Source of the DNA: Oscillospiraceae bacterium | GTDB lineage: Bacteria > Bacillota > Clostridia > Oscillospirales > CAG-272 | Direction of reading: 5' to 3' | DNA length: 64,000 nt | Assembly (NCBI GenBank): GCA_015065385.1 | Contig: SVQK01000056.1 | Coordinates: 270,983-334,982, forward strand | Program-made: the position numbers and the translations under genes | Shown here: positions 1-37,900 of the stretch, one piece after another | Layout: each line of letters starts with the position of its first letter | Position numbering within the stretch: position 1 is the stretch's first letter | The notes under the pieces: model-generated | The model's input: only the letters and a program-made list of their open reading frames with translations | The model's database searches: none | Told to the model about the DNA's origin: nothing

Positions 1-183
1 GAGCTGATCAAACTTCTGGGTTCGGGGGAGCCTATCTACGTTCCGGTGTACAGTGGTTCCCGGTGGACTTCCCGGAGGCGGATAGAATCCATCGAGTCGT
101 GCGGCGAGACCGAGTGCCAGTGCATCACGCTGGATTCCCCCGATGGATTGTATGTGACGAAGGATTTCATCGTCACGCATAAC
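1..183 (+). mobile_element. Intein, C-terminal portion only (N-terminal part lies upstream of the window)
   Basis: Translation of nt 1-186 is ELIKLLGSGEPIYVPVYSGSRWTSRRRIESIESCGETECQCITLDSPDGLYVTKDFIVTHN|S. The terminal His-Asn followed by a Ser nucleophile, and the preceding beta-rich block, resemble Hint blocks F/G. TerL ATPase sequence resumes right after it. Confidence 0.65.
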
Positions 184-1482
184 TCCTACGGATTGCTTCT
201 GACCTTTCTCCGGTACAAGAATGAGCCGGGTTTCACTGCTACGATATTCCGTCAGAACTACAATCAGATCTTCGCGCCCGGTGGTTTGTGGGATGAAGCC
301 GAGAAAATCTACGGGCGCATCCCCGGAGCCGAGAAAAAGACAATGGATGGCGCTTGGCAGTTTCGTGGGAAAGACGGGCGGATTCTTAGTAAGATCAAGT
401 TTGCGCACATCGAACGGGATGATGCTGTACATAAGTGGCAGGGCTCACAGATAGCCGAAATTGGCTGGGATGAGCTCACCCATTTTACAAAGGCAGAGTT
501 CTTTTATATGCTCTCCCGTAACCGTAGTACCTGCGGTGTGAAGCCCTTCGTCCGTGCGACTTGCAACCCGGACGCAAACTCATGGGTGGCGGAGTTCATC
601 GATTGGTGGATCGACCCGGATACCGGGTATCCCATCCAAGAACGAAGCGGGGTCAAGCGGTGGTTCATTCGTCGTGATGAACAGCTTTTCTGGGCCGACC
701 GGAAACAGGATTTGTGGGCGGAGTTTGATCTTCAAACCCCGGAGGAGAAGCAAGAGCCCAAGTCTGTCACGTTTATTGCGTCGTCCATCTATGACAACAA
801 GGAGCTGTTGCGGGTCAACCCGAGCTACCTTGCAAACTTGAAAGCCCTATCCGTCGTGGAGCGCGAACGGCTCCTGTACGGCAACTGGAAGATCAAACCC
901 TCCGCAGGGCTGTTCTTCAAACGGACGCAGCTCGGGTCCATACTCGAGGTTATCCCGGATGACATCCTTCAATGGGTGCGGTGCTGGGACTTAGCCGCGA
1001 CCGAGAAAGAGGAAAACGGCGATGCAGCTTACACGGCGGGCGTGCTGATCGGGAAAAGGAAGAACGGCAGATACATAATCGCGGACGTCATAAACAAGCA
1101 GATGAGTGCCGCGGATGTCCGGAAGACGATCTACCTGACAGCACAGGCAGACCGGGCGAAGTTCAAACGCATCCGGATCCGGTTACCTCAAGACCCGGGC
1201 CAAGCCGGGAAGGAACAGGCACAGTCCTATATAAAACTGCTCTCCGGTTTTGATGTGACCGCGGTTCCCGAGACCGGGAGCAAGGAGAGCCGGGCCGAGC
1301 CTATGGCGGCTCAATGGCAAGCCGGAAACTTCGACATCGTACACGCGGATTGGAATGAACCATACCTTGAACAGCTTGAGAATTTCCCCGAGTGGAAGTT
1401 TAAGGACATGGTGGACGCTTCGGCTAACGGCTTCGCGGAAGTCGAGCTGAAAGCGATGTTTAATATCGATACACTACTTTGA
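1..1482 (+). CDS. terL: Terminase large subunit, 5'-partial (runs off window start), interrupted by an intein
   Basis: Frame 1 is open from nt 1 and is the same frame as track ORF 46..1482. After the intein junction the sequence reads SYGLLLTF..., then Walker-B-like GWDELTHF, the ATCNPD coupling motif and acidic nuclease-like motifs (WDLAATE, DMVDASANG). It lies immediately upstream of the portal. Confidence 0.85.
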   Translation, partial: ELIKLLGSGEPIYVPVYSGSRWTSRRRIESIESCGETECQCITLDSPDGLYVTKDFIVTHNSYGLLLTFLRYKNEPGFTATIFRQNYNQIFAPGGLWDEAEKIYGRIPGAEKKTMDGAWQFRGKDGRILSKIKFAHIERDDAVHKWQGSQIAEIGWDELTHFTKAEFFYMLSRNRSTCGVKPFVRATCNPDANSWVAEFIDWWIDPDTGYPIQERSGVKRWFIRRDEQLFWADRKQDLWAEFDLQTPEEKQEPKSVTFIASSIYDNKELLRVNPSYLANLKALSVVERERLLYGNWKIKPSAGLFFKRTQLGSILEVIPDDILQWVRCWDLAATEKEENGDAAYTAGVLIGKRKNGRYIIADVINKQMSAADVRKTIYLTAQADRAKFKRIRIRLPQDPGQAGKEQAQSYIKLLSGFDVTAVPETGSKESRAEPMAAQWQAGNFDIVHADWNEPYLEQLENFPEWKFKDMVDASANGFAEVELKAMFNIDTLL

Positions 1483-1531: not shown

Positions 1532-4387
1532 ATGGCGATGGACACGCGCGGGTATAAAAATCTCCTGCGGAAACAAACGGGAAAAGCTGTGCGTCCTGTC
1601 CGTTATGATGGGTATGTAAACCTCATCAACCGTTACGGGACCTCAAAAGATATAGACGAGCAGTACTTCTTTTCTCCGGAGCCGGATGTGCCGGATGATG
1701 AACTGGAGCTGTTTTACGAAGGAAACGGGCTGTTCGCAAAGATCATCGATACCCCCGCTGAGGAAGCCGTGAAGCACGGCTTTGAGTTGGAAGATCTGAA
1801 CGACGATGAAATCAAAAACTTCTACGAATCCGCTCTGGATGAGCTGGATTGGGAAGAAGTGTGCATGACCTGCATTAAATGGGCGCGTCTTTATGGCGGG
1901 AGCCTCGCGGTCATGCTGATCAACGATGGCCGCGGGCTTGAAGAACCGCTCGATTGGGATTCTATCGAGTCCATCGACGATATTGTTGTCTACGACCGGT
2001 CGCTGATCGTTCCGGACCAGTCCAGCATCTATAAGTACGAGAAGGACAACCCGTTCGGCACAAGAGGCAGTCGCCTCGGAACACCCGAATGGTACGAGAT
2101 AAACAGCACAAACGGGAACTTCCGGGTTCACGACAGCCGGGTTCTCGCGTTCCGAAATGGCGTGCTTCCGCAGAGAGCAACACACCAGAACTACCAGCTC
2201 TGGGGCATTCCGGAATATGTGCGGATCAACCGAGCGATCCGAAATGCGGAGGTTGCGCACGAGAGCGCTCCGAAGATGCTCTCGAAGTCCGTCCAGCCCG
2301 TGTACAAGATGAAGAATCTGTCTGAGCTGCTGGCGACCACGGATGGCGAGGACAAGGTTCTGCGGAGGCTCCGTTTGATCGATATGGCGCGGAGCTTCCT
2401 GAATTCCATTACCATCGACCAAGAAGGCGAAGACTACAGTTTCGCCTCCTTTGCGTTTAACGGAGTCGATCAGGTTATCACCTCCTCGTGCAACTGGCTT
2501 TCCGCGCTGACGTCCATTCCGCAGACTATCCTGTTTGGGCGGTCGCCCGCGGGCATGAATGCGACCGGAGACGCCGACCTCGAAAACTACTACAACTATG
2601 TGGAACGGATTCAGAAGCGGATGGTTCGGTCGAATCTCCGGTATCTGTTGTCCGTGATATTTACCGCGGGTCTGCATACCGGCGAGATCGATCATATTCC
2701 CGAGTTCAGCATCAAGTTCTCCCCGTTGTGGTCCATGACTGAATCCGAGCAGGTTGCGCTTGATTTGCAGAAAGCTCAGGTTGAGTCCGCGCGTGCGCAG
2801 ACGGCGTCCACATACATTCAAAATCAGGTTATCGATCCCGGCGAAGTCCGGAAGAGCCTCGCGGAATCGGACGAGTTCGACATCGAGACGATGCTGGACG
2901 ATTACACCGAGGAGGAACTTGAAGAGAACGCTCCAAAGGGCGAAGAGGGCGGGATGCCCGGTGAAGGTGGTTTGCCCGGTATGCCTCCCATGGGTGGTGC
3001 GCCGGACGGTGGCGGTATGCTTCCCATGGGTGGTGATCCCGGGTCGGGGCAGGAGGCCCCGGCACAGCCCGCACAGGCCGCTTCTGAGCCCGTTTCCGAG
3101 AGCGGGGAAGAAGGATACGCCCTGCAAGGAAACAGCCCTGAAACCGCCCCTGAAGCGACCAAGCTGCCTCAAGACCAGCTCGAGGAAGACCCGGATCATG
3201 AAGATGCGGAAAACATGGATGATGAGGACGAAGGGGCAGATAAAATCATATCTCGCCACGGCAAACCGGACTACGAGGCTCCGGTTCCCGCGGGAGAGGC
3301 TTCTTCATGGCTCGTCCAAGACCTCGACCCTCTCATGACGAACAACCCGGACACATCTTCTCCCGATTGGACCGATGATGAGATCAAACGCAGAATCCGT
3401 TCTGTGGGTGTTCTGGTAGTTGATCAGTTCGGGAAGATCCTCACTGGTGTGCGTAAGGGCGGAAGCGGTGAGAACTACGGACTGCTTGGCGGTCCCGGTG
3501 GCCACGTTGAGCCGGGGGAATCCCTCGAAGACGCGGCTATCCGTGAAACCTATGAGGAGTTCGGGATCGTCCCGAAAGATCTGATGTTCATTTCCCTCGG
3601 TCGCTACGAAGAGGACAGTGGGATGATCCCTGCCATCTTTCTTTGCACGGAGTGGGCCGGAAGGATCTACCCGGTAGACGGGGAGATGGAGAATATCCGG
3701 TTCCGGACTATAGACGACATCGAAACACACAAGTTGTTCGGGCCGTTCGAATCTTCTCTGGAAATACTCGAAAAAGAGTTGACTTCCGAGGATGAAGATG
3801 GTAATATAGTGATGGATGAATTCGTGGAGAGCGACCATCCCAGAGATGAAGACGGACGGTTTTCCAAGAATTCCACATCCGGTGCTAAGAGCGCTTCACC
3901 AAGCGGCGGGAAGAGCTCGACGAAATATGCTGAAATTGACGATGATGATGAAGAATATAATCCAGATCTTGATGGACCGGGGGAAGAGGCCAAACGAGAG
4001 AAAGAGCATGCAATAAGCTACTATAAAGCCGTTAGGCGTCGGCACGGTGATGTCAAGAAGATCGCAAGGAATACCGGATTTCCCGAGCAAGTGATCGATA
4101 GAATTCGTGAACATGTTTTCATGAAGAAGCACGATCTGGGAGACGATAAAATGAAACGCTTTTCCCCGGATTATGATATGGCACAGTCATGGCAGCGGTT
4201 AGTGAAGGGAAAAAACATTCAACCCCATGACGTCACCCTTTTGAAGCATGAACAAAAAGAGTACGAGCTGATGGATTCGGGACTATCTCAGGATAAAGCC
4301 CACGCGTTAGCGACCCGAGAATTTGATTATCAAGGAGAGGTGGAAAAATACAATGGTAAAAGTCAAAAACATAACAAAGACACCTGA
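1532..4387 (+). CDS. Portal protein (resembles the DUF1073 portal family) fused to a Gly/Pro/Met-rich linker, a Nudix hydrolase domain and a helical C-terminal domain
   Basis: 951-aa ORF after terL with a GGTGAGGTG RBS. The N-terminal ~460 aa are portal-like by position and size. A low-complexity stretch follows (GGMPGEGGLPGMPPMGGAPDGGGMLPMGGDPGSG), then a Nudix box, then DEFVESDHPRDEDGRF and a C-terminal domain containing LLKHEQKEYELM. Confidence 0.8.
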   Translation: MAMDTRGYKNLLRKQTGKAVRPVRYDGYVNLINRYGTSKDIDEQYFFSPEPDVPDDELELFYEGNGLFAKIIDTPAEEAVKHGFELEDLNDDEIKNFYESALDELDWEEVCMTCIKWARLYGGSLAVMLINDGRGLEEPLDWDSIESIDDIVVYDRSLIVPDQSSIYKYEKDNPFGTRGSRLGTPEWYEINSTNGNFRVHDSRVLAFRNGVLPQRATHQNYQLWGIPEYVRINRAIRNAEVAHESAPKMLSKSVQPVYKMKNLSELLATTDGEDKVLRRLRLIDMARSFLNSITIDQEGEDYSFASFAFNGVDQVITSSCNWLSALTSIPQTILFGRSPAGMNATGDADLENYYNYVERIQKRMVRSNLRYLLSVIFTAGLHTGEIDHIPEFSIKFSPLWSMTESEQVALDLQKAQVESARAQTASTYIQNQVIDPGEVRKSLAESDEFDIETMLDDYTEEELEENAPKGEEGGMPGEGGLPGMPPMGGAPDGGGMLPMGGDPGSGQEAPAQPAQAASEPVSESGEEGYALQGNSPETAPEATKLPQDQLEEDPDHEDAENMDDEDEGADKIISRHGKPDYEAPVPAGEASSWLVQDLDPLMTNNPDTSSPDWTDDEIKRRIRSVGVLVVDQFGKILTGVRKGGSGENYGLLGGPGGHVEPGESLEDAAIRETYEEFGIVPKDLMFISLGRYEEDSGMIPAIFLCTEWAGRIYPVDGEMENIRFRTIDDIETHKLFGPFESSLEILEKELTSEDEDGNIVMDEFVESDHPRDEDGRFSKNSTSGAKSASPSGGKSSTKYAEIDDDDEEYNPDLDGPGEEAKREKEHAISYYKAVRRRHGDVKKIARNTGFPEQVIDRIREHVFMKKHDLGDDKMKRFSPDYDMAQSWQRLVKGKNIQPHDVTLLKHEQKEYELMDSGLSQDKAHALATREFDYQGEVEKYNGKSQKHNKDT
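3394..3780 (+). other. Nudix hydrolase domain embedded in the portal ORF
   Basis: The Nudix box GX5EX7REUXEEXGU is matched by GGHVEPGESLEDAAIRETYEEFGI. It is flanked by typical Nudix beta strands (VGVLVVDQFGKILTGVRK ... IPAIFLCTEW). Confidence 0.8.
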
Positions 4388-4637: not shown

Positions 4638-5243
4638 ATGCCTTCGGAGGACATTGTGGGAAAAGTCGATGAATATATAAAGCGGAGGAGAATCCGGCTT
4701 CTTTCCCGGAACGGAGAAACACCTTCATTCTCAGATCGAGTAACGGCTTTCAAGGCCCGTCGCGCAGCTCGGCTCGACGTACGGAATAAAGAACTTGAAA
4801 TGCTGAAAAATGGGTTGACTTTCTCCAAATATAATGGTAACATTGCAATGGATGAATTCGTGGAAGGCGACCATCCACGGGATGAGAACGGGCAATTCGC
4901 TAAAGCGAATAGCTCCGAGGCTTCAAGCGAGTCGGGAGCTGAAACGGTAAAACCGCAACCCACGACCCCATCTGCAAAAGAGATCCGGTCCCGTTTGATC
5001 GGGCAAAAAACGCAGGACGGGCAAACGGTAAAGTCGGTGAGCGACCACGCAGTACAAAGGGTTCAGGAACGGAAGATCGGTTTTGATACAATCGAGAATT
5101 TGTTCCAATCCGGTAACGTTCGGCCCGGACACACACCGAACACGATTTGCTATGAAACCGATAAGCACAGAGTTGTTTTCGACAAAAACAACGGCAAAAT
5201 AGTAACCGTGATGCACCGGGGCAATAGAGGAGGCAAGAAATAA
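4638..5243 (+). CDS. Effector protein with a C-terminal DUF4258-like (RelE/BECR-fold RNase toxin-like) domain
   Basis: The C-terminus VSDHAVQRVQERKIGFDTIENLF...HRVVFDKNNGKIVTVMH fits the DUF4258 signature (HAxxRxxERxI ... IVTV). The middle carries NIAMDEFVEGDHPRDENGQFAKAN, which is shared with the portal. The N-terminus has FKARRAARL, as in the effector paralogs. An alternative start is GTG 4656, 5 nt after GGAGG. Confidence 0.6.
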   Translation: MPSEDIVGKVDEYIKRRRIRLLSRNGETPSFSDRVTAFKARRAARLDVRNKELEMLKNGLTFSKYNGNIAMDEFVEGDHPRDENGQFAKANSSEASSESGAETVKPQPTTPSAKEIRSRLIGQKTQDGQTVKSVSDHAVQRVQERKIGFDTIENLFQSGNVRPGHTPNTICYETDKHRVVFDKNNGKIVTVMHRGNRGGKK

Positions 5244-6571: not shown

Positions 6572-7417
6572 ATGAATAAAGTACGCGCTTTCCAAGGGCG
6601 TCGATATAAGCGGCTCCTCGCAAGGATGGATGCCAACACTGACAAAGGAAAATGGATCACAACCGAAAACAATCACAAAGTCCATCTGAACGAGAACGGA
6701 CAACCAGATATGGGCAACCCTCACGTGATCGCTGCGATGGGTGGTAGCGAGTCCTCAGTACAGGTAAGTGATCTCAGTAAGCGGGTTGAGGGACTTAAGA
6801 AGATGAAAAAGACCGAACGGCAACAGGAGCTTGCGAGTATTCTCGGTGATATGCCGGTGGGTTCTCAGATTACAGTTAAGAACCCGGGGCTTCCTGATCA
6901 AGTCATAACGAAAAAGGACGCGGAAACCTTCGAGCTTAAGACCACGATGTTTGGTGCACCATCCGTTCACGATTCTTCACTCTTCGCATTGTCTCACGGT
7001 TTGTCTAATGATAAGAGCAATGCGTATTCGTTCGAAGGCTCCGGCACAATGCAATCTCAGGCGAAGGCGGAAAGTGGCGTTAATCCCAACGCTAAAACCC
7101 CCTCCAATGTATCATCTTCAAGTTCAAGTGGGGGTGGGTCTACAGTGCCCCCCGATGCAGATGCTCTTGCTAAGACAAAGGCTCAAAAAGCCGCTGAAAA
7201 AGCTAAGACTGCGGCCATGCTCAAAAAAGCACAAGCCGCGGTAGCTAAAAAAGAAAAGATCTCACAGATTGATAAGGAAATCGAGCAGCTGGAACACGAG
7301 ATGTATAAGGCCCAGCATTACGGGAATACCGAGATCGGGGATTGGGATCTGTCCCACGAACTTGAAATGAAAATCCATAATCTTGAGGAGCAGAAAAAGA
7401 AGCTCACAGGGAAGTAA
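6572..7417 (+). CDS. Effector-family paralog 1 (shared N-terminal module, Ser-rich linker, coiled-coil C-terminus)
   Basis: ATG 6572 after GAGGAAGGGAG. The track ORF start at 6257 overlaps muF and is rejected. The N-terminus is MNKVRAFQGRRYKRLLARMD...GKWITTENNHKVHLNENGQPDMGNPHVIAAMGG. The C-terminus is Lys/Ala/Glu-rich coiled coil. Confidence 0.6.
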   Translation: MNKVRAFQGRRYKRLLARMDANTDKGKWITTENNHKVHLNENGQPDMGNPHVIAAMGGSESSVQVSDLSKRVEGLKKMKKTERQQELASILGDMPVGSQITVKNPGLPDQVITKKDAETFELKTTMFGAPSVHDSSLFALSHGLSNDKSNAYSFEGSGTMQSQAKAESGVNPNAKTPSNVSSSSSSGGGSTVPPDADALAKTKAQKAAEKAKTAAMLKKAQAAVAKKEKISQIDKEIEQLEHEMYKAQHYGNTEIGDWDLSHELEMKIHNLEEQKKKLTGK

Positions 7418-7439
7418 AAGTTAAAGCGAGGCATTTTTG

Positions 7440-10400
7440 ATGAATAAAACGGATGCGTACCGTAACCGCCGGTATAAGCGGCTTCTCGCAAGAATGGATG
7501 AAGTGGATGGCCATTTCGACGACGAGGGGCATTGGGTCACAACCCACGAAACGAAACGGCACATACACATAAACGAGAACGGGGTTCCTGATAAGGGCAA
7601 CCCCTATATTATTGCCAAGATGACCGGGACGAAACCGAAACTCAGCGGCGAATACCGGAAAAAATCGCTGCAGGAGAGTTTCGGTAAAGGGAATACCGGT
7701 AAGGCAGTGCATTCGTTGAAGAGCCTTCCCGAAGGATCGACGATCAAGATGGCAAACGGAACGGAGTACACAAAGACCGGAAGCGGCTTTGTCAGTTCCA
7801 AGAGTAAAACGGGTGGTAAACAGACCCCGCAAGCTCTGGCGAAAATCCTTGATGGTCATACGAAGGCCGGTAAGAACTTCGAGGTCAATCCTTCCGACAT
7901 TGGCGGGGCTGTCGAAGCGGGGAAAAACACGGGAGCCCCGAAGCCCGGACAGGGTGCTGAGTCCGAGGCTCCGAGTGCTTCTACGTCAGAATCGGTGCCG
8001 GAAACCGCATCAGCATCGTCCCCGGAGATCGATGCGCTTAACACGGTAATCGATCAATGGGGCGCGGGCAATCAGGTCCCCGCAGTAACCACATTGCAAG
8101 CTCTCACGGGTTTAGAAGACGGGACGAAAATCTTAGTTGACGGGTTTACCTTTGAAAAGCAGTCTGAAATCAGCGCGCTTGGGGCAGGGAAGGTCACTTC
8201 CTTTAAGAACACGGACACGGGCGAGGTCTTTAGTAAGGGTACGTTTAAGGCAATCCTGAAAAGCTATGCAGAGGAAGGTCAGCACGATATAGAGGTGCAA
8301 GCGCCCGGTCAATCGACGCCCGCCTCGGCTGAGGCCGCACCTGCTCCGGATGAGGTGGCCCCGGTTGAAACGGCTTCGACTTCTCCTGAAGTAACCAAAT
8401 TCAACGACATTCTTTCAGGGTGGGCTGGCCACTACAGCGATGGGACACTTACAGAGGACGATATTGCCGCCGCAAATGCTTTGAAGGATGGCACGATTAT
8501 CTCCGTTAACGGAAAAGATACCTACAAAAAGGTTACCGAACACTCCATGTACGGCGACTATCCGTGGTTTGAAAACTTAGAAACCGGGAAATGGTCGAAT
8601 GTACCCGCGCTGAAAAAAATCGTGGGCGGGGATGACGTACAGGCTGTACAGGTGAAAGATCCCGCAAATGATACAACAGTTTCTGCGCCAGCTTCTGAAC
8701 AAGAGCCTACGCCGACGTCGAGTGCCGAGCCTTCTGCCGAGCAACCGAGTTCTTCTTCCGGTGGTAAGACGATGAAGGACCTGACAGAGTCCTTGAAAAA
8801 GTATCCCCCGACCATGGAGGGGGCGAATAAGTTCTGGAATGAAGTCAATAGCACCTTCGATAACGCCCCTGACGGAACTGAGATAACCTTTCCTGATGAA
8901 GACGATGGAAAATGGATCAAGGAAACCCACGGGAGCCTGACGCAATGGGTAAACCTCGCTTCCGGCGATACGATGGATAACAGTGAGATGTCGGCGGCTT
9001 TCTTGGATTCCGACTTTGGCAAGGATCTCGATAACATTTCTGCCGGAATAACCTATAAAGAACCTACCGGCGCGGGGACGCCGGGTTCAAGCTCGAGCGG
9101 TTCAAGTGGTTTAGCCTCGCAGGATTATTCGGGCCAAAAAGAAGCCCTTAGCGATCTGATCAAAAACGTGCCCGATGCGAGCATTGCCGCCTATGAAACG
9201 GTGTTGGATGAATTCCCAGAGGGCACCATCATCAAGGTTGGCGGAAAAACGTATGAAAAAATTCCGTCCGGGGATTGGGGTGATCCAGATACAGGGTTGC
9301 CGCTTGGCGAGTCTTGGGATGTGGGCTACGAGCTGAAGCACTATAACCCTCAACACACCTTAGACATTTCGATACCCGGAGAAAACACCGCCGCGTCTTC
9401 CACCGGCAATGCGAATACACCTACTACGAGTTCTGACCCGGCGCAGTATTCGGCGTCTCTTTCAGGGGTAAAAAGCGCTGTAGATAAACTGAAACAAGGG
9501 AAATTCGTCCATCCGGCAGAGTTCAAAAAGGCGTGTAAGTCAATGAAAGACGGCGATGGAATCGTCACGAACGGAAAAACCTATATCAAGGGTACAGATT
9601 CGTCCGGAAATCCGGTGTTCCACCCTTCTGATTCCCCACAGCACACTTACAGTTCTACCGGCATGGTGGACATCATGGCATACCAGATCGGTTTGCAAAA
9701 AGCCGGTCTCTCAAACGGGGTTTCGTTCAAATCCGGATCGGATCAATCCAGCTCAGGAAGTACAGCCGGTGCTTCACCCAGCACGGCAGCTCCCACGGCA
9801 ACACCGAGCGTGGCCGCAAAAGACACGCAGAAATCAATCAAAAATGCTAAGACCAAAGCCGCCGTCGCTTCGGCTCTGGACGCGCTTCCCGTGGGAACGA
9901 AGATCCACATGAAGAACCAAGGGGAAACCGTGTTCACAAAAACGGAGCACGGTTTCTCAAAAGAGTCTAAGTTCTGGGGCGGGACCATTCACACCCTTAC
10001 CGATGACGTGGTGAAATATGTTCACGGGAAGAATAAATACGCCGCGCCCTTTGCTATCGAAGATACTTCTGGCGGAACAACCGATTTCTCGGACGGTTCA
10101 AGCTATAAAGCCCCGGCGCATTCGTCTACCGCGTCTTTGCAAAGCCAGTCTTCCTCCTCCGCCTCGTCCGCTTCATCTTCCGCATCAAGCCCGAAACCGA
10201 GTGCTTGGAACGGGCTAAAAGCAAAAGTCCAACATGCCGCCGAAGCGTTCACCCAAGCCCGGAAGAACGCGGCCCATTGGGATAAAGGGGGCGGAATGGC
10301 AACCGATAAACTGCTGAGACCGGTTACAGGAGCAGTATGGAAAAAACTAACTGAGGGGCAGAAGAAGAGTCTGGTTGCCTATACCGGGAGCGCTTATGCG

Positions 10401-10925
10401 AGCATAAATGACGCATTGAGAAACGGAACCGGTAAACGAGCTGCAGACATAAACAACATGACAACGGCTATCGATCAGTGCGAAGCGCCCACCGATATAT
10501 GGCTTCAGAGAGGATGTTCGACATACGCATTGAGTAAGCTGTTCAACACCGATACGATGACCCTTGAAAAAGCGCGTTCAAAAGGATCCCAAGCTATTCT
10601 TGACCTTTTGTCCACCTCGGCAAACTACGGTCAGGATAAGGGTTTCATGTCATGCGGGTCTTCGAAAGGGAAGGGCTTTTCCTCTAACGATGTGATTTTG
10701 AACGTGTACTGTCCGAAAGGCACGAAGATGATGTATGCGGAACCGTTCTCCCACTATGGCGCGACAAGTGCCGGAGCTACGTGGAACGGCTCGTCTGGTA
10801 CAACTCATGTTTCAGGCGAACACGAAACAATCCTGCAAAGGGGGACAATGCTCCGTCCCACAAAGGTCACGGTGTCTAACGGTAAGATATACGTGGATGT
10901 AGACGTAATCGGTCAAAACTACTAA
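7440..10925 (+). CDS. Effector-family paralog 2: shared N-terminal module, about 7 repeated modules, and a C-terminal ADP-ribosyltransferase toxin domain
   Basis: The N-terminus MNKTDAYRNRRYKRLLARMD...HWVTTHETKRHIHINENGVPDKGNPYIIAKMTG is about 150 aa and highly similar to paralog 3. S/T/A/P-rich linkers separate the repeats. The ART motifs are at the C-terminus. Confidence 0.8.
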   Translation: MNKTDAYRNRRYKRLLARMDEVDGHFDDEGHWVTTHETKRHIHINENGVPDKGNPYIIAKMTGTKPKLSGEYRKKSLQESFGKGNTGKAVHSLKSLPEGSTIKMANGTEYTKTGSGFVSSKSKTGGKQTPQALAKILDGHTKAGKNFEVNPSDIGGAVEAGKNTGAPKPGQGAESEAPSASTSESVPETASASSPEIDALNTVIDQWGAGNQVPAVTTLQALTGLEDGTKILVDGFTFEKQSEISALGAGKVTSFKNTDTGEVFSKGTFKAILKSYAEEGQHDIEVQAPGQSTPASAEAAPAPDEVAPVETASTSPEVTKFNDILSGWAGHYSDGTLTEDDIAAANALKDGTIISVNGKDTYKKVTEHSMYGDYPWFENLETGKWSNVPALKKIVGGDDVQAVQVKDPANDTTVSAPASEQEPTPTSSAEPSAEQPSSSSGGKTMKDLTESLKKYPPTMEGANKFWNEVNSTFDNAPDGTEITFPDEDDGKWIKETHGSLTQWVNLASGDTMDNSEMSAAFLDSDFGKDLDNISAGITYKEPTGAGTPGSSSSGSSGLASQDYSGQKEALSDLIKNVPDASIAAYETVLDEFPEGTIIKVGGKTYEKIPSGDWGDPDTGLPLGESWDVGYELKHYNPQHTLDISIPGENTAASSTGNANTPTTSSDPAQYSASLSGVKSAVDKLKQGKFVHPAEFKKACKSMKDGDGIVTNGKTYIKGTDSSGNPVFHPSDSPQHTYSSTGMVDIMAYQIGLQKAGLSNGVSFKSGSDQSSSGSTAGASPSTAAPTATPSVAAKDTQKSIKNAKTKAAVASALDALPVGTKIHMKNQGETVFTKTEHGFSKESKFWGGTIHTLTDDVVKYVHGKNKYAAPFAIEDTSGGTTDFSDGSSYKAPAHSSTASLQSQSSSSASSASSSASSPKPSAWNGLKAKVQHAAEAFTQARKNAAHWDKGGGMATDKLLRPVTGAVWKKLTEGQKKSLVAYTGSAYASINDALRNGTGKRAADINNMTTAIDQCEAPTDIWLQRGCSTYALSKLFNTDTMTLEKARSKGSQAILDLLSTSANYGQDKGFMSCGSSKGKGFSSNDVILNVYCPKGTKMMYAEPFSHYGATSAGATWNGSSGTTHVSGEHETILQRGTMLRPTKVTVSNGKIYVDVDVIGQNY
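10310..10922 (+). other. ADP-ribosyltransferase domain (R-S-ExE class, C3/VIP2/SpvB-like)
   Basis: YTGSAYASINDALRNG; catalytic Arg in DIWLQRG (Arg codon 10509-10511); STS-like FMSCGSS; ExE in GEHETILQRG (10818-10826). Confidence 0.8.
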
Positions 10926-10952
10926 CCTCGAAATTAAACCGGTTATTACTGC

Positions 10953-10981
10953 TTGACTTTTTTCATGCTTTATGGTAATAT
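10953..10981 (+). promoter_or_regulatory. Sigma-70-type promoter with extended -10, internal to the late region
   Basis: TTGACT (10953-10958), 17-nt spacer, TGgTAATAT (-10 at 10976-10981). It lies 28 nt after the ART gene stop. Confidence 0.6.
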
Positions 10982-11012
10982 GGGTTTACCTAATATGAGG
11001 GGGTAACATTTC

Positions 11013-11267
11013 ATGGCGAAAGAAGGAAAGATGAAGCCTCGTGATTGGGATGAGGGATTCGGTGATAACGCTGAACACGGCGCGGAAGAAACGCCTTGCA
11101 CCGATTGCGTTTTTCGTCGAATTGTCACAAGCGCAGATGGTAGGGTGATAGATACCGGAAAAGGATCTACCTGCAAGGCCTATCCCGAGCTCAAACCGCT
11201 CGAGGTGATGATGTATGGGGCCGAGTGCCCGAAATATCAGAAGGATAAACACGAAAAGAACCTCTGA
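11013..11267 (+). CDS. Small Cys-containing protein (84 aa), unknown function
   Basis: ATG after GAGGGGG. Cys pattern PCTDC...C...ECPKY. It is the first gene of the promoter-to-terminator cassette that also carries the ARH gene. Confidence 0.55.
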   Translation: MAKEGKMKPRDWDEGFGDNAEHGAEETPCTDCVFRRIVTSADGRVIDTGKGSTCKAYPELKPLEVMMYGAECPKYQKDKHEKNL

Positions 11268-11312
11268 GGCAAAGAGGATACCGAAAATGAACCCAAACAG
11301 GGAGGCAAACGC

Positions 11313-12233
11313 ATGATAGGAGCCATCATCGGTGACATCGTCGGCTCGGTCTACGAGTTCGACAATCATCGATCAAAGATTTTTCCGCTTTTTGATTCTC
11401 GCTGTGCGCTGACAGACGACAGCATAATGACGCTGGCCATCGCAAGAGCGCTCACGATCTACGGGCAGCAGGGGACGTATGAAAACCTGCAATCTGAGAC
11501 GATCCGGCAGATGCAGAGGGTCGGTCGATGCTACCCCGATTGCGGTTGGGGCGGGCGTTTCGGAAGGTGGATCTTCTCAGACGATCCGAAGCCATACAAC
11601 AGCTTCGGGAATGGCGCGGCTATGCGGGTCAGCGCGATTGTCGCCGCGGCTCCAAACCTCGAAACGGCGAAGCTGTGGACGAAGCTGGTAACCGAGATTT
11701 CGCACAACCACCCGGAAGGGATCAAAGGCGCACTTGCGACGGTTGAGCTTGCGTGGATAGCAAAAGAGGCCAGAAAACGCACGAATCCAAAATGCAAAGA
11801 TCGCATTTTCAAAGCCGCTTTGAAATACTACCCGGAAAAAGACTTCGCCGGAGATTTCAACCTTGATGCGATCCGCCCCAAATACCGATTCAACGAAACC
11901 TGCCAAGAGACGGTTCCGCAAGCCATCGAAGCGTTCCTTGAATCGAGAGATTTTGAGGACGCTATTCGAAATGCGATCTCAATCGGCGGGGACAGCGACA
12001 CGTTAGCCGCAATTACAGGGACTATCGCCGAGGCCTTCTACGGGGTGAAGCAGGAGCATAAAGCAAAAGCGCTCAAATACTTCGACAGCCTCCAATACGG
12101 AATCTACAGTGAGTTTTCAGCTATGTACAACGATCTGCCCGTATTCGGAGAGCTGTCCGGAGAAATCGCATTCCGAACAACCGAAGACGGATCCATCGGC
12201 GGGATTTCTACGATGGGAGACGTCATTGGGTAA
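11313..12233 (+). CDS. ADP-ribosylglycohydrolase (DraG/ARH family)
   Basis: GAIIGDIVGSVYEF, TDDSIMTLAIARAL, GNGAAMRVSAI, HNHPEGIKGA and GGDSDTLAAITGTIAEAFYG are the hallmark di-metal ARH motifs. Confidence 0.9.
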   Translation: MIGAIIGDIVGSVYEFDNHRSKIFPLFDSRCALTDDSIMTLAIARALTIYGQQGTYENLQSETIRQMQRVGRCYPDCGWGGRFGRWIFSDDPKPYNSFGNGAAMRVSAIVAAAPNLETAKLWTKLVTEISHNHPEGIKGALATVELAWIAKEARKRTNPKCKDRIFKAALKYYPEKDFAGDFNLDAIRPKYRFNETCQETVPQAIEAFLESRDFEDAIRNAISIGGDSDTLAAITGTIAEAFYGVKQEHKAKALKYFDSLQYGIYSEFSAMYNDLPVFGELSGEIAFRTTEDGSIGGISTMGDVIG

Positions 12234-12252
12234 TCCCGCGAACTGAATACCG

Positions 12253-12277
12253 AAGACGCAGAAATGCGTCTTTTCTT
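12253..12277 (+). terminator. Rho-independent terminator closing the ARH cassette
   Basis: AAGACGCAgaaaTGCGTCTT followed by a T-rich tail. Confidence 0.65.
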
Positions 12278-12286
12278 ATTTCCCCG

Positions 12287-13972
12287 TTGAAAGGAGGGGT
12301 CGGCATAAAAGGCAACAACATAAGTCGTTTCAAACAGCGACGCGCTGAACGTCTAATACAAAGAGCGTTTAATGCGGATGCCCGTTTTGACGAGGACAAG
12401 GGAAAATGGGTGACGACCCACGAAAAGAAGCGTCGAATCCACATAAACGAAAACGGAATCCCGGATAAAGGGAACCCCTTTGTCATAGCCAAGATGACCG
12501 GGTCTAAGCCCAAGGTCAGCACTGGCTACAAAAAGAAGAATCTTCACGATCTTCTTGTAAAGGGCAAATCCGACAAAGCTGTAAAAGCTCTGAAAGCCTT
12601 GGAAGAAGGTTCCACTATCACGCTGGAAAACGGCACACAGTACACGAAGACGGGGAGCGGCTTTGTCAGCTCGAAGGGAAAAACTGGCGGCAAACAAACC
12701 CCGCAAGCCATAGCGAAGATCCTCCATGGTCACTCCGGAGGCGGGAAGGACTTTACGGTTGGTGATCCCAAACCCGATGCAGTTCCCGAGGCAAAAGCGC
12801 CTAAAACGTCAACCGTCCCAACCTACCCGAAGACATACAGCAAGGGTCAGCTTGGCGCGTCCCATAGTTCTCATATGGGAGACGATCCGGTAGACATTCC
12901 GAAAGGTCCGCCTAAAACCTATAAATCCGACTCCGGCCACGAATTCGTGGACGCGGGTAATATTCTATCAAGCGTCAAATCAACCGATACGACGAAAGAC
13001 ATCATCGAGAAGCAGGGATTCAGCGGTTTGCCTCGACGGGTATCAAAAGAGGAATTTCAAAAGATTGCAAAACAGAGTGGTTTCGTTTCGAAGCGAACAT
13101 ATAGCGCGGCCTCTCAGGAGCTCGCAGACGAATATCGAAAACAGCTCTACGAAGGGGACTTTTTCGTGGACTGCACCGTAGGCGGTGCACAATACGGGCA
13201 AGGAATGTATTGTGCCGCCGATTACACCGGCAACGGATACAACGCGGGCATCGACGAAGAGATGAAGCACTACCAAAAATTGAATGTCGCGCGGCAAGCA
13301 GATAACGCTTTCATCTTAGGGGCTTCAACCGAAGATCTGAACAAGGCCATAGACGAGTGTAAGGCCGCGGGTAAGTACAGCTGGAACGGAATGGGTTACA
13401 AGCACATGACCCCTGCCGAGCATGAGGCGTTTAAGAAGTTTGTAACGCATCAGAAGCTCAGCCCAAAAGAAGAAGAGGCCATGGCAAAGCACGGCGGTTT
13501 TTCGGATGTTCAGTTCGTGCTGTCCACTGATGTCGGGTGGAGCAACTATGGAACGGTTTCCGTAGGAAGCACTAAGAGCGCTACCAAGAACAAGTTCCTC
13601 TCGACATATAAGGGGTACAAAAAGACCGAAGTGGTCACGTTGGACCCGAGCGCGAAGATTATTAGTTTCAATGCTCTAAAGGCGAAATACAAGGCCTATA
13701 AAGGTACGAAACCGAAAGATCTGGGTGCCTTCGCCGCGGCTATGGGCTACGATGCGATCAACGCCTACGGCCATGGTAAATCCGGGTCCTACACCGTTAT
13801 TCTCAACCGGACAAAATGTGTATTTATGGATCGGCCTATCAATGGCGACTCGGTAGATGAGCCGAAGGAATCCCGTATCAAGTTCATCCCCGGCAAGCAT
13901 GGCCGGTTCCACGCATATCGGGACGGTCAATATCTGGGGTGGGTGGACACCTACGTCGGCGGTCAGAACTGA
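12287..13972 (+). CDS. Effector-family paralog 3: shared N-terminal module plus a putative PARP/ART-like C-terminal domain
   Basis: The N-terminus RFKQRRAERL...GKWVTTHEKKRRIHINENGIPDKGNPFVIAKMTG...TGSGFVSSKGKTGGKQTPQAIAKIL parallels paralog 2. The C-terminus has YGQGMYCAAD (compare PARP FGKGIYFAD) and TEVVTLDPSAKI (compare NEYIVYD). The start codon is uncertain: TTG 12287 has no RBS, while in-frame ATA 12305 lies 7 nt after AGGAGG. Confidence 0.7.
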   Translation: MKGGVGIKGNNISRFKQRRAERLIQRAFNADARFDEDKGKWVTTHEKKRRIHINENGIPDKGNPFVIAKMTGSKPKVSTGYKKKNLHDLLVKGKSDKAVKALKALEEGSTITLENGTQYTKTGSGFVSSKGKTGGKQTPQAIAKILHGHSGGGKDFTVGDPKPDAVPEAKAPKTSTVPTYPKTYSKGQLGASHSSHMGDDPVDIPKGPPKTYKSDSGHEFVDAGNILSSVKSTDTTKDIIEKQGFSGLPRRVSKEEFQKIAKQSGFVSKRTYSAASQELADEYRKQLYEGDFFVDCTVGGAQYGQGMYCAADYTGNGYNAGIDEEMKHYQKLNVARQADNAFILGASTEDLNKAIDECKAAGKYSWNGMGYKHMTPAEHEAFKKFVTHQKLSPKEEEAMAKHGGFSDVQFVLSTDVGWSNYGTVSVGSTKSATKNKFLSTYKGYKKTEVVTLDPSAKIISFNALKAKYKAYKGTKPKDLGAFAAAMGYDAINAYGHGKSGSYTVILNRTKCVFMDRPINGDSVDEPKESRIKFIPGKHGRFHAYRDGQYLGWVDTYVGGQN

Positions 13973-14003
13973 TAGAATCGCCTCTTCCGATGAAAAATAA
14001 AAT

Positions 14004-14023
14004 GCGCGGAAACGCGCTTTTTT
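14004..14023 (+). terminator. Rho-independent terminator
   Basis: GCGCGgaaaCGCGC followed by TTTTTT. Confidence 0.65.
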
Positions 14024-14050
14024 AGTTCCTCACGATAGGAGGCGTTTCCG

Positions 14051-14218
14051 TTGAAAGAATACATTCGTGTTTTCATTCGTTTCAAAGAAGGGAGAACCGT
14101 GTGCATCTGCATGAGGGACAACCCGAAATGCAAGAAGCACTGCATCCCAGAACTGGTAGAGCGGGACAAGATGAGAGATTGGCAAGAGGCCTTCAAGGTC
14201 AATAAATACGGAAAGTAA
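14051..14218 (+). CDS. Possible small Cys-rich protein (55 aa, TTG start)
   Basis: AGGAGG at 14037-14042, then 8 nt, then TTG 14051. Translation is LKEYIRVFIRFKEGRTVCICMRDNPKCKKHCIPELVERDKMRDWQEAFKVNKYGK. It is below the track size cutoff. Confidence 0.3.
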   Translation: MKEYIRVFIRFKEGRTVCICMRDNPKCKKHCIPELVERDKMRDWQEAFKVNKYGK

Positions 14219-14321
14219 AGCGGGGTATATCGCATATGAAACGCGTCGTAAAATCGGTTCACGATCCGCCCATCGAAAGCTATTATTTTGACGGCAAAGA
14301 AAGAGAAGGGAGGTGGTACGG

Positions 14322-14651
14322 ATGCCGGAGAAAGAAATGAGCGTCATTGAAACCATCTGCCAGCAGATGATTAAGTCTGCGGGGGATGTCATCGCGCTCG
14401 AGCAGGTTATATCTCGGCTGGAAGACCACAATAACGATAAGGTGTTGGAGCTGTTTGAACACCTGCAAATCTCCAATCTGGAAGCCCTGCAAACCTTGAC
14501 AGTCGCCTTAACGGGTGAAATGCTGGAATCCCGGAAGACCGAAAACGATGATTCGGATGATGGCGGCGTCTTTGCGCCGGGGGAGCTCGATTGGAAAAAG
14601 AAAGCCGAGGTGATCGGCCACGGTGAAACGGAGGAAGAAGCCGATGAATAA
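14322..14651 (+). CDS. Acidic hypothetical protein (about 110 aa)
   Basis: ATG 14322 after GAAGGGAGG. Its stop overlaps the scaffold gene start. Confidence 0.6.
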   Translation: MPEKEMSVIETICQQMIKSAGDVIALEQVISRLEDHNNDKVLELFEHLQISNLEALQTLTVALTGEMLESRKTENDDSDDGGVFAPGELDWKKKAEVIGHGETEEEADE

Positions 14652-34914: not shown

Positions 34915-37900
34915 ATGTACTTCAAAAAGCTGAAAATCAACGGTATTGAGTATGAAATGGAAACCCATATTGTCGGAGAGGAGGATCCCACCTCCGAGAC
35001 CGAAGGCAATCTGGGCCAGTTCTATTACAACTCGAATACCGGCATCTTCTGGAAGTGTACCTATTCCGAGGATGGCGTGTACTCTTGGGAAGAGTTCAGC
35101 ACGACCGCCTTTGATGAAGTCACGATGGATGAAGAAACCCGGCTTCTCCATTTCCTGAAAAATGGGGAAGATGTAGTCGATCCTGTGTACATCGCGGGAG
35201 GCGGCGGAGGCAGCGGAGGCGGCAGCGGCAACAATGCCGTCCTCACCGTTACAAACATGACCGGATGGCTGGCGCATACGATCAGCACCGGCGCGGACTG
35301 CTATCTGTCTATCGACTGGTCTTCCCTCGAAAATGAGATGGAGACCGGCGCGGGCATCCTGACGATCCGCGTGAACAACGTGGTGAAGCGGACGCTGGAC
35401 ATTTCTCAGGGGACCGTCCGGATCAACCTCAAGGATATTCTTGCGACCGGATCCAACAAGGTCAAGCTGACCGTAACCGACGTGTACGAGAACACGAAGT
35501 CGATCACCTTCACAATCAAGTCCGTCGATCTGCGGCTGGCAAGCTCGTTCTCCACGGTTTCCGAATTCACCGAGGGCGAGGCTGTCGTATTCACCTACAC
35601 GCCCTACGGCTCCGTTTCCAAGACCACGCATTTCGAGGTGGACGGAGCGGATGCCGGGACGCAGGTTGTGACGGCCTCCGGCAGACAGCAGAGCTACACC
35701 CTCCCGGCCATGGCCCACGGCGCGCACAGCCTGAAAGTCTGGTTCACGGCTGAGATCGACGGGGAGGAAGTGTCCTCGAACGTCTTATGGTTTGACATGA
35801 TCGTGGTCGGGGATTCGACCGCGCCGATCATTTCGACCTCGTTCCGCACCTCCGAAGCCGTGCAGTACGAAACCCTGTACATCAAATACCGCGTCTACAC
35901 CCCGAACAGTCTGACGTCCGTTGTCAGCCTGTATTCCGGGAACACGAAGATCACCGATCTGACCGTGGACCGGACGGAACAGACATGGACCTATCGCTGC
36001 GACGGATACGGGGAGCTGAATCTTTCGATCCGGAGCGGAACCGCCGTCGTGAATTTCGTGATCGACGTGGAGCAGTCCGACATTGACACGGAGCCGGAGG
36101 CCGACTCCCTCGCCCTGCATCTTTCGAGCTACGGGCGATCCAACAACGAGGAGCATCCGGAGGTCTGGAAGGACGAAGAGCACAACATTTCCTGCCAGCT
36201 CACGGGATTCAGCTACGTTGCAAACGGATGGGTCGCGGACAAGGACGGCAACACCGTCCTTCGCGTCTCCGGAAACGCCCGCGTGACGATCCCGTACAAG
36301 CCCTTCGAGAGAGATTTCCGCACCACGGGCAAGACGCTTGAGTTTGAGTTTGCGACGCGGGATGTGCTGGACTACGACGCGGTGCTGGTTTCCTGCATGA
36401 ACGGAAACCGCGGATTCGAACTCACGTCCCAGCGGGCAACGCTGAAATCCGAACGGTCGGAGATTTCCACGCAGTACAAGGAAGACGAGCACGTCCGGAT
36501 TTCCTTTGTGGCGGAGAAGAGAACCGAAAGCCGCCTGATCTACGTTTACATCAACGGCATCATGTCCGGCGTGGTGGAGTATCCGGAAGACGACGACTTC
36601 TCCCAGCAGTCTCCGGTGAACATCACCATCGGCGCGAACACCTGCACGACCGATCTATACAACATCCGGGTCTACGACAACAACCTGACCCGGTTCCAGA
36701 TCGTGAGCAACTGGATCGCCGACACGCAGAACATCACGGAAATGCTGGCCCGGTACGAGCACAACAACGTGTACGACGAATACGGGAATGTCGTCATTTC
36801 CAAGCTGCCGAAGGATCTGCCGTACATGATCATCGAGGCGGAGGAACTTCCGCAGTACAAGGGCGACAAGAAGACGGTTTCCGTGGAGTACACCGACCCC
36901 GTAACCCCCGGCAGGAGCTTCACGGCGACCGGATGTCAGGCAAACGTACAGGGGACGTCCTCCGCGCCATACGCCCGGAAGAACTACGATATGCAGTTCA
37001 AGGCGGGATTCGTTCTCGCGGACAAGTCCTCGGCGGAAAACTACGAGCTGGCCCCCGGAATCATCCCCTTCAACCGTTTCGTTCTGAAAGCGGATGTGGC
37101 GTCCTCGGAATCCGCAAACAACGTGGAGCTGGTGAAGCTGTTCTGCGAGGCCGATCCCTACAAACGCCCCGAAGAACTGTCGAATGCTAAGGTCAGAAAG
37201 GGTATCTACGGCTTCCCGATTGTGCTGTTCTGGCGCAATCCTGCGGACGGTTCGGAACAGTTCATGGGGAAGTACAACTTCAACCTGCCCAAACGTGCTC
37301 CCGGCCCCTACGGGTACAGCGGAGACATGGAGTCTTGGGAGTTCCAGAACAACACCTCCAACCTCATGCTTTTCCTGAGCGACTATTTCTCCGAGGCACC
37401 TCAGGCTGATCCCTCCACCGGAGAGGTCAAGGCCGCATGGCGATATGATTACGAAGCGCGTTTTCCCTCCGACGAATGGGTGGACTACTCCAAACTTCAG
37501 GAGTTCCAATCCTTTGTCTTCTCGACCTACCGGGCCGGGGCGACGGGGAATGATCTGGAAACGCCCGTGACCTATCAGGAGACCCATACCGTCTATGATG
37601 AGGTGGTGGATCCGGAAACCGGAGCTGTGGACTATGTGGAGCGGCTTGTGACGGAGGATGTGACCTACACCAAGGATACGGCGGAATACCGTCTATCCCG
37701 CTTCCATCATGAGTTCGGTAAATATGCGGAGGTGGATTCGTTCCTCTTCTACTACATCTTTACCGAATTGTTCCTGATGGTGGACTCCCGTGCGAAGAAC
37801 CTGTTCATCGGCTTCTCGGGCGGGCCGACGTCCGGCCTGACCCACCTCGACCGCAAGGCCGTTGCAGAGCCTTACGACATGGACACGGCGATAGGTACGA

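Follow-up and report, generated by a model that had tools for sequence, protein, structure and literature searches.

The 64,000-nucleotide stretch of DNA analysed here (the window) covers positions 270,983 to 334,982 of contig SVQK01000056.1, which was assembled as Oscillospiraceae bacterium (GCA_015065385.1), and it opens inside a gene for a phage terminase large subunit (TerL). We are highly confident that nt 1–183 of the window are the 3′ end of a class 3 mini-intein, which is inserted into the Walker A motif, between Lys and Ser, of a Terminase_6-type TerL from an uncultured tailed phage. A first-pass annotation, made from the sequence of the window, had suggested the C-terminal end of an intein at this position, and we analysed the reading frame, the sequence upstream of the window and the relatives of the encoded protein.

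Frame 1 of the plus strand is open from nt 1 to a stop codon at nt 1480–1482. Its codons 1–61 translate to ELIKLLGSGEPIYVPVYSGSRWTSRRRIESIESCGETECQCITLDSPDGLYVTKDFIVTHN and end with ...FIVTHN. His60 (nt 178–180) and Asn61 (nt 181–183) are followed by Ser62 (nt 184–186), which are exactly the C-terminal His-Asn pair and the Ser +1 residue named in the first-pass annotation. The Pfam family Terminase_6N matched frame-1 residues 76–311, beginning only at position 25 of the profile, and Terminase_6C matched residues 329–476. When the protein was compared by tblastn with 50,697 phage records, 24 of the 25 matches listed began at residue 61 or 62, and the remaining one (H2) began at residue 40. These match positions show that the first 61 codons are foreign to TerL. 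The proposal that the frame does not resemble TerL before nt 184 thus agrees with Pfam, tblastn and the intein-less homologues described below. The C-extein on the plus strand (nt 184–1482, 432 codons and the stop codon) encodes the remaining part of the ATPase domain as well as the RNaseH-like nuclease domain.

The missing 5′ part of the gene was recovered from public contigs. The N-terminal part of TerL was absent from the opposite end of the window, where it was searched for, and an exact 43-nt pattern taken from the window's first nucleotides found no source contig in viral, metagenome and genome collections. Four contigs (L003–L006) were retrieved through an exact match to the 951-residue portal protein of nt 1532–4387; ENA and JGI each supplied two, and one of the four is 82,484 nt long. 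All four extend upstream of the window, and they showed no mismatch to it over 6,882–14,387 compared bases. In these identical contigs, TerL starts 392 nt before the window and is encoded as a 624-residue precursor, consisting of a 51-residue N-extein, a 141-residue intein (423 nt) and the 432-residue C-extein. The N-extein ends with the Walker A motif, ...AIYGGSAGGGK, whose last residue is Lys51. The intein starts with AQPLDEPVLTPYGF, its Ala1 corresponding to Ala52 of the precursor, so that the precursor reads ...IYGGSAGGGK/AQPLDEP...(141 residues)...FIVTHN/SYGLLL (slashes mark the splice junctions). The first 80 codons of the intein are found in the 240 nt that precede the window (L003 nt 8230–8469), and the window holds the remaining 61 (nt 1–183, plus strand, intein residues 81–141). 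This established the anatomy of the element, with blocks A and B in the identical contigs and blocks F and G inside the window. The Hint-domain N-terminal blocks expected upstream, including a T-x-x-H motif, are indeed there, the motif lying within the interior sequence TRCTAEHLW, and TerL homology does not run uninterrupted through this region. The predicted N-terminal junction, G-K followed by Cys or Ser, was borne out as far as the Walker A G-K is concerned; the first residue of the intein is Ala, not Cys or Ser.

To locate the insertion site, we inspected the 120 closest proteins in a large protein collection. Of these, 114 are shorter than 500 residues and six have 605–758 residues; ten of these relatives were read and aligned. 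The four short ones carry an uninterrupted ...IYGG(S/A)AGGGKSYGLLL... sequence. The long relatives instead read ...GGGK/AQPLDEPVLTP...TRCTAEHLW...ECQCITLD...FIVTHN/SYGLLL..., which corresponds to a clean insertion of 140–145 residues between the Walker A Lys and Ser. Because the intein-less relatives read GGGKSYGLLL, the intein of the window sits between these two residues as well, and S-YGLLLTF follows a Walker A G-K, as had been supposed: the N-extein ends with GSAGGGK. Ser +1 (nt 184–186), the first residue of the C-extein and the point at which homology to intein-less TerL begins, is therefore also the Walker A Ser (GSAGGGK-S). Joining the exteins in silico gave a TerL of 483 residues, which is 84% identical to the intein-less protein P0003 and aligns with it without a single gap over 465 residues, the outcome anticipated for an alignment of the spliced product with intein-less TerL. 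Coverage of the Terminase_6N profile rose from positions 25–213 (57.1 bits) in the precursor to positions 1–213 (68.1 bits) in the spliced protein. Tryptic digestion should release SYGLLLTFLR, preceded by ...GGGK, from the spliced protein and DFIVTHNSYGLLLTFLR from the precursor. The view of the P-loop as a known hotspot for terminase inteins is in line with the literature, where P-loop Lys/Thr is a classic site (PMC5050341).

In class 3 inteins (Tori et al. 2010), the block F Cys is absolutely required and a branched intermediate forms on block F. They are defined by a non-nucleophilic residue 1, by the co-varying residues Trp B:12, Cys F:4 and Thr G:5 (WCT) and usually by Ser or Thr, rarely Cys, at position +1 (PMC2807308, PMC5050341; further on the mechanism PMC5222942, PMC7664689, PMC6195587). 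The intein of the window carries all of these features. Residue 1 is Ala, at window coordinate −239 in the identical contigs, and it is also Ala in all four full-length relatives. Trp B:12 is intein residue 66, the last residue of T-A-E-H-L-W, and likewise comes from the identical contigs, outside the window. The other residues are inside the window on the plus strand: Cys F:4 (intein residue 121, precursor residue 172) at nt 121–123, Thr G:5 (intein residue 139) at nt 175–177, the penultimate His (G:6) and terminal Asn (G:7) at nt 178–183, and Ser +1.

A family profile, built from the mini-inteins of the four relatives and the window fragment, was searched against the sequences of the PDB. 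It matched solved inteins with E-values from 3e-10 to 8e-6, including gp41-1 engineered with WCT (6riz, 3e-10), Mycobacterium smegmatis DnaB-1 (6bs8, 8.5e-8) and M. chimaera DnaB-1 (6rix, 2.5e-6). In the profile alignment, Cys F:4 of the window coincides with Cys118 of 6bs8, which has been established experimentally as the catalytic cysteine (PMC6195587). For the intein of the close relative P0001, an AlphaFold model had a mean pLDDT of 92.4. Its best Foldseek matches were the class 3 inteins 6rix, 6riy and 6bs8 (E ~1e-9, TM 0.74–0.81), and all of the top 50 PDB fold matches were HINT folds, that is, inteins or Hedgehog HINT domains.

Membership in an intein family was established further by profile searches with the C-terminal end. 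The profile was built from 211 independent intein C-termini, each less than 60% identical to the window fragment. The fragment scored 81 bits (E 2.5e-24) against it, compared with 9.7 bits for the best of 1000 shuffled versions, and when all six frames of the window were scanned with the profile, the aligned stretch ended exactly at Asn61. A six-frame search revealed no second intein of the same family elsewhere in the window. An exhaustive profile search retrieved 12,349 cluster representatives at E<=1e-3; the following residue counts come from the best 150 of these. The first intein residue was Ala in 130 cases, Pro in 25, Ser in seven and Cys in two, and the preceding extein residues were mostly G-x-G-K. 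The C-terminus was THN in 208 of 218 related inteins, and the +1 residue was Thr or Ser in 208 of 218. The WCT positions were occupied by Trp B:12 in 218/228, Cys F:4 in 214/220 and Thr G:5 in 213/217 sequences. The family is thus very large, with more than 12,000 cluster representatives, and tightly conserved, nearly all members starting with A/P-Q-P-L-D and ending with T-H-N before a Thr or Ser. Block B:6 was Cys in 136/227 members, and a C-x-C motif was present at block F:2–4 in 60/220. Many of the top family members had two to six matched stretches, corresponding to several class 3 inteins per protein. Some of these are only a few residues apart, as in ...THN/SGTGK/AQPLD... of P0124.

Standard resources gave little indication of the element. 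Neither Pfam nor NCBIfam matched the 62-residue fragment, and comparing this single sequence with the PDB was equally fruitless. A word-indexed protein search, queried with only the intein, retrieved P0121 and nothing else, so that the exhaustive profile search was required. Since the standard libraries miss the fragment, relatives and the upstream context were needed to recognise the intein.

By homology to characterised class 3 inteins (PMC2807308, PMC5222942, PMC7664689), a four-step splicing route can be proposed. In the intact precursor the ATP-binding loop is split, and the protein should therefore be unable to drive DNA packaging. Splicing would begin with an attack of the thiol of Cys121, the predicted first nucleophile, on the Lys51–Ala52 peptide bond, assisted by His64 (B:10) and Trp66 (B:12), which would give a thioester-linked branched intermediate on block F. 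The N-extein would then be transferred to the hydroxyl group of Ser +1, the splicing acceptor. Cyclisation of Asn141 (nt 181–183), assisted by His140, would release the intein, and an O-to-N acyl shift would finally create the Lys–Ser bond, an intact Walker A motif (GSAGGGKS) and the 483-residue TerL. Ser +1, once used in splicing, would subsequently take part in ATP/Mg binding, as has been described for P-loop inteins in DnaB (PMC6195587).

Whether TerL is maintained with the intein in place was assessed by comparison with lineage L001, which is 91% identical and also carries the intein. The exteins differ by 106 synonymous and only 7 non-synonymous codon changes. TerL is thus still under strong purifying selection in two intein-bearing lineages, which is good, if indirect, evidence for an active intein. 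The 61 intein codons differ by 13 synonymous and 11 non-synonymous changes, none of them at catalytic residues, so that the intein is under weaker constraint. No second TerL copy was detected in the window and the 8.4 kb upstream of it (72 kb examined).

The first-pass annotation had allowed for an optional homing endonuclease domain. Such a domain is absent from the intein of the window and present in relatives with the same insertion site. The 141-residue intein is continuous between Trp22 and Thr23 of the window's frame 1 (about nt 66/67, within nt 61–72, plus strand), where the alignment places a LAGLIDADG domain in P0020 and P0038; in P0038, the domain was matched by Pfam LAGLIDADG_3 (3.7e-10) and Hom_end (1.4e-4). 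Because its sequence is continuous at this point, the intein of the window is a mini-intein. It shares the insertion site, the N- and C-terminal splicing blocks and the WCT residues with the LAGLIDADG versions (P0020, P0038 and P0121), which differ by an endonuclease of ~180 residues between the splicing halves. Since it lacks the endonuclease, the intein would now be inherited vertically, and the same-site LAGLIDADG relatives would represent the mobile form. The base composition of the intein (GC 57.0%, GC3 66.0%) resembles that of the extein (GC 54.9%, GC3 67.5%). A recent foreign origin of the intein was rejected on this basis, as intein and extein do not contrast; the match fits a long residence after loss of the endonuclease.

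At two loci with endonuclease-bearing inteins, L008 and L009, a TAG codon breaks the TerL N-extein just upstream of Walker A. In L008 (~2900–2945), two extra nucleotides create the TAG and a frame shift, and in L009 (~2790–2900), ~9 extra nucleotides include an in-frame TAG. Because the N-extein is interrupted, gene callers start the protein inside the intein at both loci. These interruptions may be due to pseudogenes, assembly errors or recoding.

The catalytic Cys121 is part of a C-Q-C motif together with Cys119, and two further cysteines, Cys60 (block B) and Cys114, lie close by in sequence. Under oxidising conditions, Cys121 could become locked in a disulfide, which would keep the terminase inactive; disulfide trapping of the catalytic Cys has been shown for the class 3 intein of M. 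smegmatis DnaB-1. The intein might then act as a conditional redox switch on the terminase, so that DNA packaging would depend on redox conditions in the infected cell, although we consider this unlikely.

Several observations speak against the assignment to an active class 3 mini-intein. The N-terminal 80 residues, including Ala1 and blocks A and B, lie outside the window and are known from the identical public contigs. Even with the full mini-intein as query, no Hint or intein model of Pfam or NCBIfam was matched significantly, the best match being Hom_end_hint with an E-value of 0.3. The modelled structure is that of the P0001 intein, from a protein whose identity to the window protein is 96% overall and 82% across the 61 intein residues inside the window. 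Grafting WCT onto a class 1 intein did not produce splicing (PMC7664689), and the triplet is therefore necessary but not sufficient evidence of activity. We infer both the occurrence of splicing and its chemical route from homology, and a small number of WCT inteins have turned out to be pseudogenes (PMC3196547). The last two points would also suit a decayed, non-splicing remnant or an insertion that is kept in the mature protein, with TerL dead or packaging carried out by another protein, as would the loss of the homing endonuclease and the faster evolution of the intein relative to the extein. Every catalytic position is intact, however, and the insertion splits the Walker A motif that TerL needs. 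The strong purifying selection on the extein in two intein-bearing lineages and the lack of another TerL in the 72 kb likewise argue against decay, and the same genome was assembled from four samples without a single difference. We therefore regard a remnant as very unlikely. An even smaller probability, close to nil, attaches to an assembly or frame artefact or to a chance His-Asn-Ser in an unrelated N-terminal extension. The tripeptide H-N-[S/T/C] alone is common, but the 81-bit profile score lies far above that of the shuffled fragments, and the same architecture recurs in independent assemblies and diverged relatives.

The other alternatives concern the splicing class. Most known inteins belong to class 1 (PMC2807308), in which the first (thio)ester forms at residue 1, with block F in a purely assisting role, and a C-terminal His-Asn followed by Ser +1 fits any class of intein. 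Such an intein is nevertheless scarcely probable here, as residue 1 is Ala rather than Cys or Ser in the identical contigs and in all the full-length relatives, block F:4 is Cys instead of the usual Asp, Trp B:12 and Thr G:5 are both present, and the closest solved relatives are class 3 inteins. In class 2 (KlbA-like) inteins, the +1 residue attacks the N-terminal bond directly, without the block F intermediate, and an Ala1 combined with a nucleophile at +1 would suit this route. Class 2 inteins lack WCT, however, and use Cys +1 (PMC2807308), whereas the intein of the window has the full WCT triplet and Ser +1; moreover, the class 3 intein of Bvi IcmO was unable to take the class 2 route even with Cys +1 (PMC5222942). 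We give class 2 as little chance as class 1, and both mechanisms were rejected because of the combination of Ala1, WCT and Ser +1.

The window represents a tailed-phage structural module and encodes a portal-NUDIX fusion, Mu F-like, ADP-ribosyltransferase-domain, DUF2213, tape measure and baseplate J proteins. The portal protein (nt 1532–4387, plus strand, 951 residues) combines Phage_portal_3 (residues 57–416) with a NUDIX hydrolase domain (residues 621–732) and a long C-terminal tail, and the same fusion was found in L008 and L009. A 37-residue motif, NI(V/A)MDEFVExDHPRDExGxFxK, is common to portal residues 743–779 (nt 3758–3868) and to residues 53–89 (nt 4794–4904) of the open reading frame at nt 4638–5243. 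The two copies are 62% identical (E 5e-12), and the motif could be a processing or capsid-targeting signal. Further downstream, two consecutive genes on the plus strand open with a shared module of ~60 residues (nt 6572–6766 and 7440–7634), MNK..RRYKRLLARMD...NENGxPDxGNPxIIAxM, whose copies are 54% identical (E 1.5e-18); a second, weaker shared stretch follows further in.

The reading frame at nt 7437–10925 (plus strand) encodes a 1162-residue Ser/Thr/Ala-rich protein with a terminal ADP-ribosyltransferase exoenzyme domain (PF03496, residues 968–1153). The next sizeable open reading frame, at nt 11313–12233 (plus strand), encodes an ADP-ribosylglycohydrolase (PF03747, a precomputed match on the identical contig L003). 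This ADP-ribosylation writer/eraser pair in the head-morphogenesis module may constitute an injected effector and its antidote. After the baseplate genes, nt 34915–40899 (plus strand) encode a 1994-residue protein whose only match was a sub-threshold one to CotH kinase (E 2.5e-4, residues 928–1068); a role as tail fibre or in host recognition is probable. Upstream of TerL, nt 1–8076 of L003 encode an SNF2-related helicase, a weak Terminase_4 (small terminase) candidate, a protein with an S-adenosylmethionine synthetase N-domain, a fusion of ParB_N with an N6/N4 DNA methyltransferase, an Amidoligase_2 protein and a GGACT (gamma-glutamyl cyclotransferase-like) protein.

For annotation, our results mean that the first 183 nt of the window should not be assigned to terminase and that the real TerL would be the 483-residue spliced product, which gene callers and domain libraries miss. 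At related loci, gene calls begin inside the intein, and Pfam and NCBIfam do not recognise the mini-intein. The size and conservation of the family fit the proposed phage origin of class 3 inteins, and small class 3 mini-inteins could be of some use as parts in protein engineering.

The closest known systems are the mycobacterial class 3 DnaB mini-inteins, M. smegmatis DnaB-1 (6bs8) and M. chimaera DnaB-1 (6rix/6riy), together with the prototype, the DnaB intein of mycobacteriophage Bethlehem. The mycobacterial DnaB-1 inteins were the best matches both by sequence profile and by fold. The intein of the window shares with the class 3 DnaB mini-inteins Ala1, WCT, Ser or Thr at +1, the terminal His-Asn and a length of ~140 residues. 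It also shares with class 3 DnaB inteins the insertion directly after the Walker A Lys, where the +1 residue doubles as the Walker A Ser/Thr (PMC6195587, PMC7664689). It differs from them in its host, a phage terminase instead of a replicative helicase, and sequence identity is only ~20–25%. It is further set apart by its C-Q-C motif, in which another Cys stands two positions ahead of the catalytic one, and by a Gly in place of the His that many relatives have in ...D-H-L-Y....

Among phage proteins, TerL hosts inteins most often, and it is the main host in actinophages, the P-loop Lys/Thr being a classic site (PMC5050341; bioRxiv 10.1101/2025.01.02.630785). Class 3 inteins have already been noted in phage TerL, mostly in ATPase P-loops (PMC2807308). 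Among the mycobacteriophage TerL inteins described by Kelley et al. (2016, PMC5050341), those at site TerL1-a likewise lie between the P-loop Lys and a hydroxyl residue (Thr), a likeness by site. In that survey, however, the P-loop sites belonged to Terminase_1-type TerL, whereas the intein of a Terminase_6-type TerL was located in the C-motif. The window combines a Terminase_6-type TerL from an uncultured phage that is not an actinophage with a class 3 mini-intein in the P-loop. This is a modest difference from the known TerL inteins; it leaves the current understanding unchanged and extends the range of P-loop hosts of class 3 inteins by a TerL of the Terminase_6 type from an uncultured phage.

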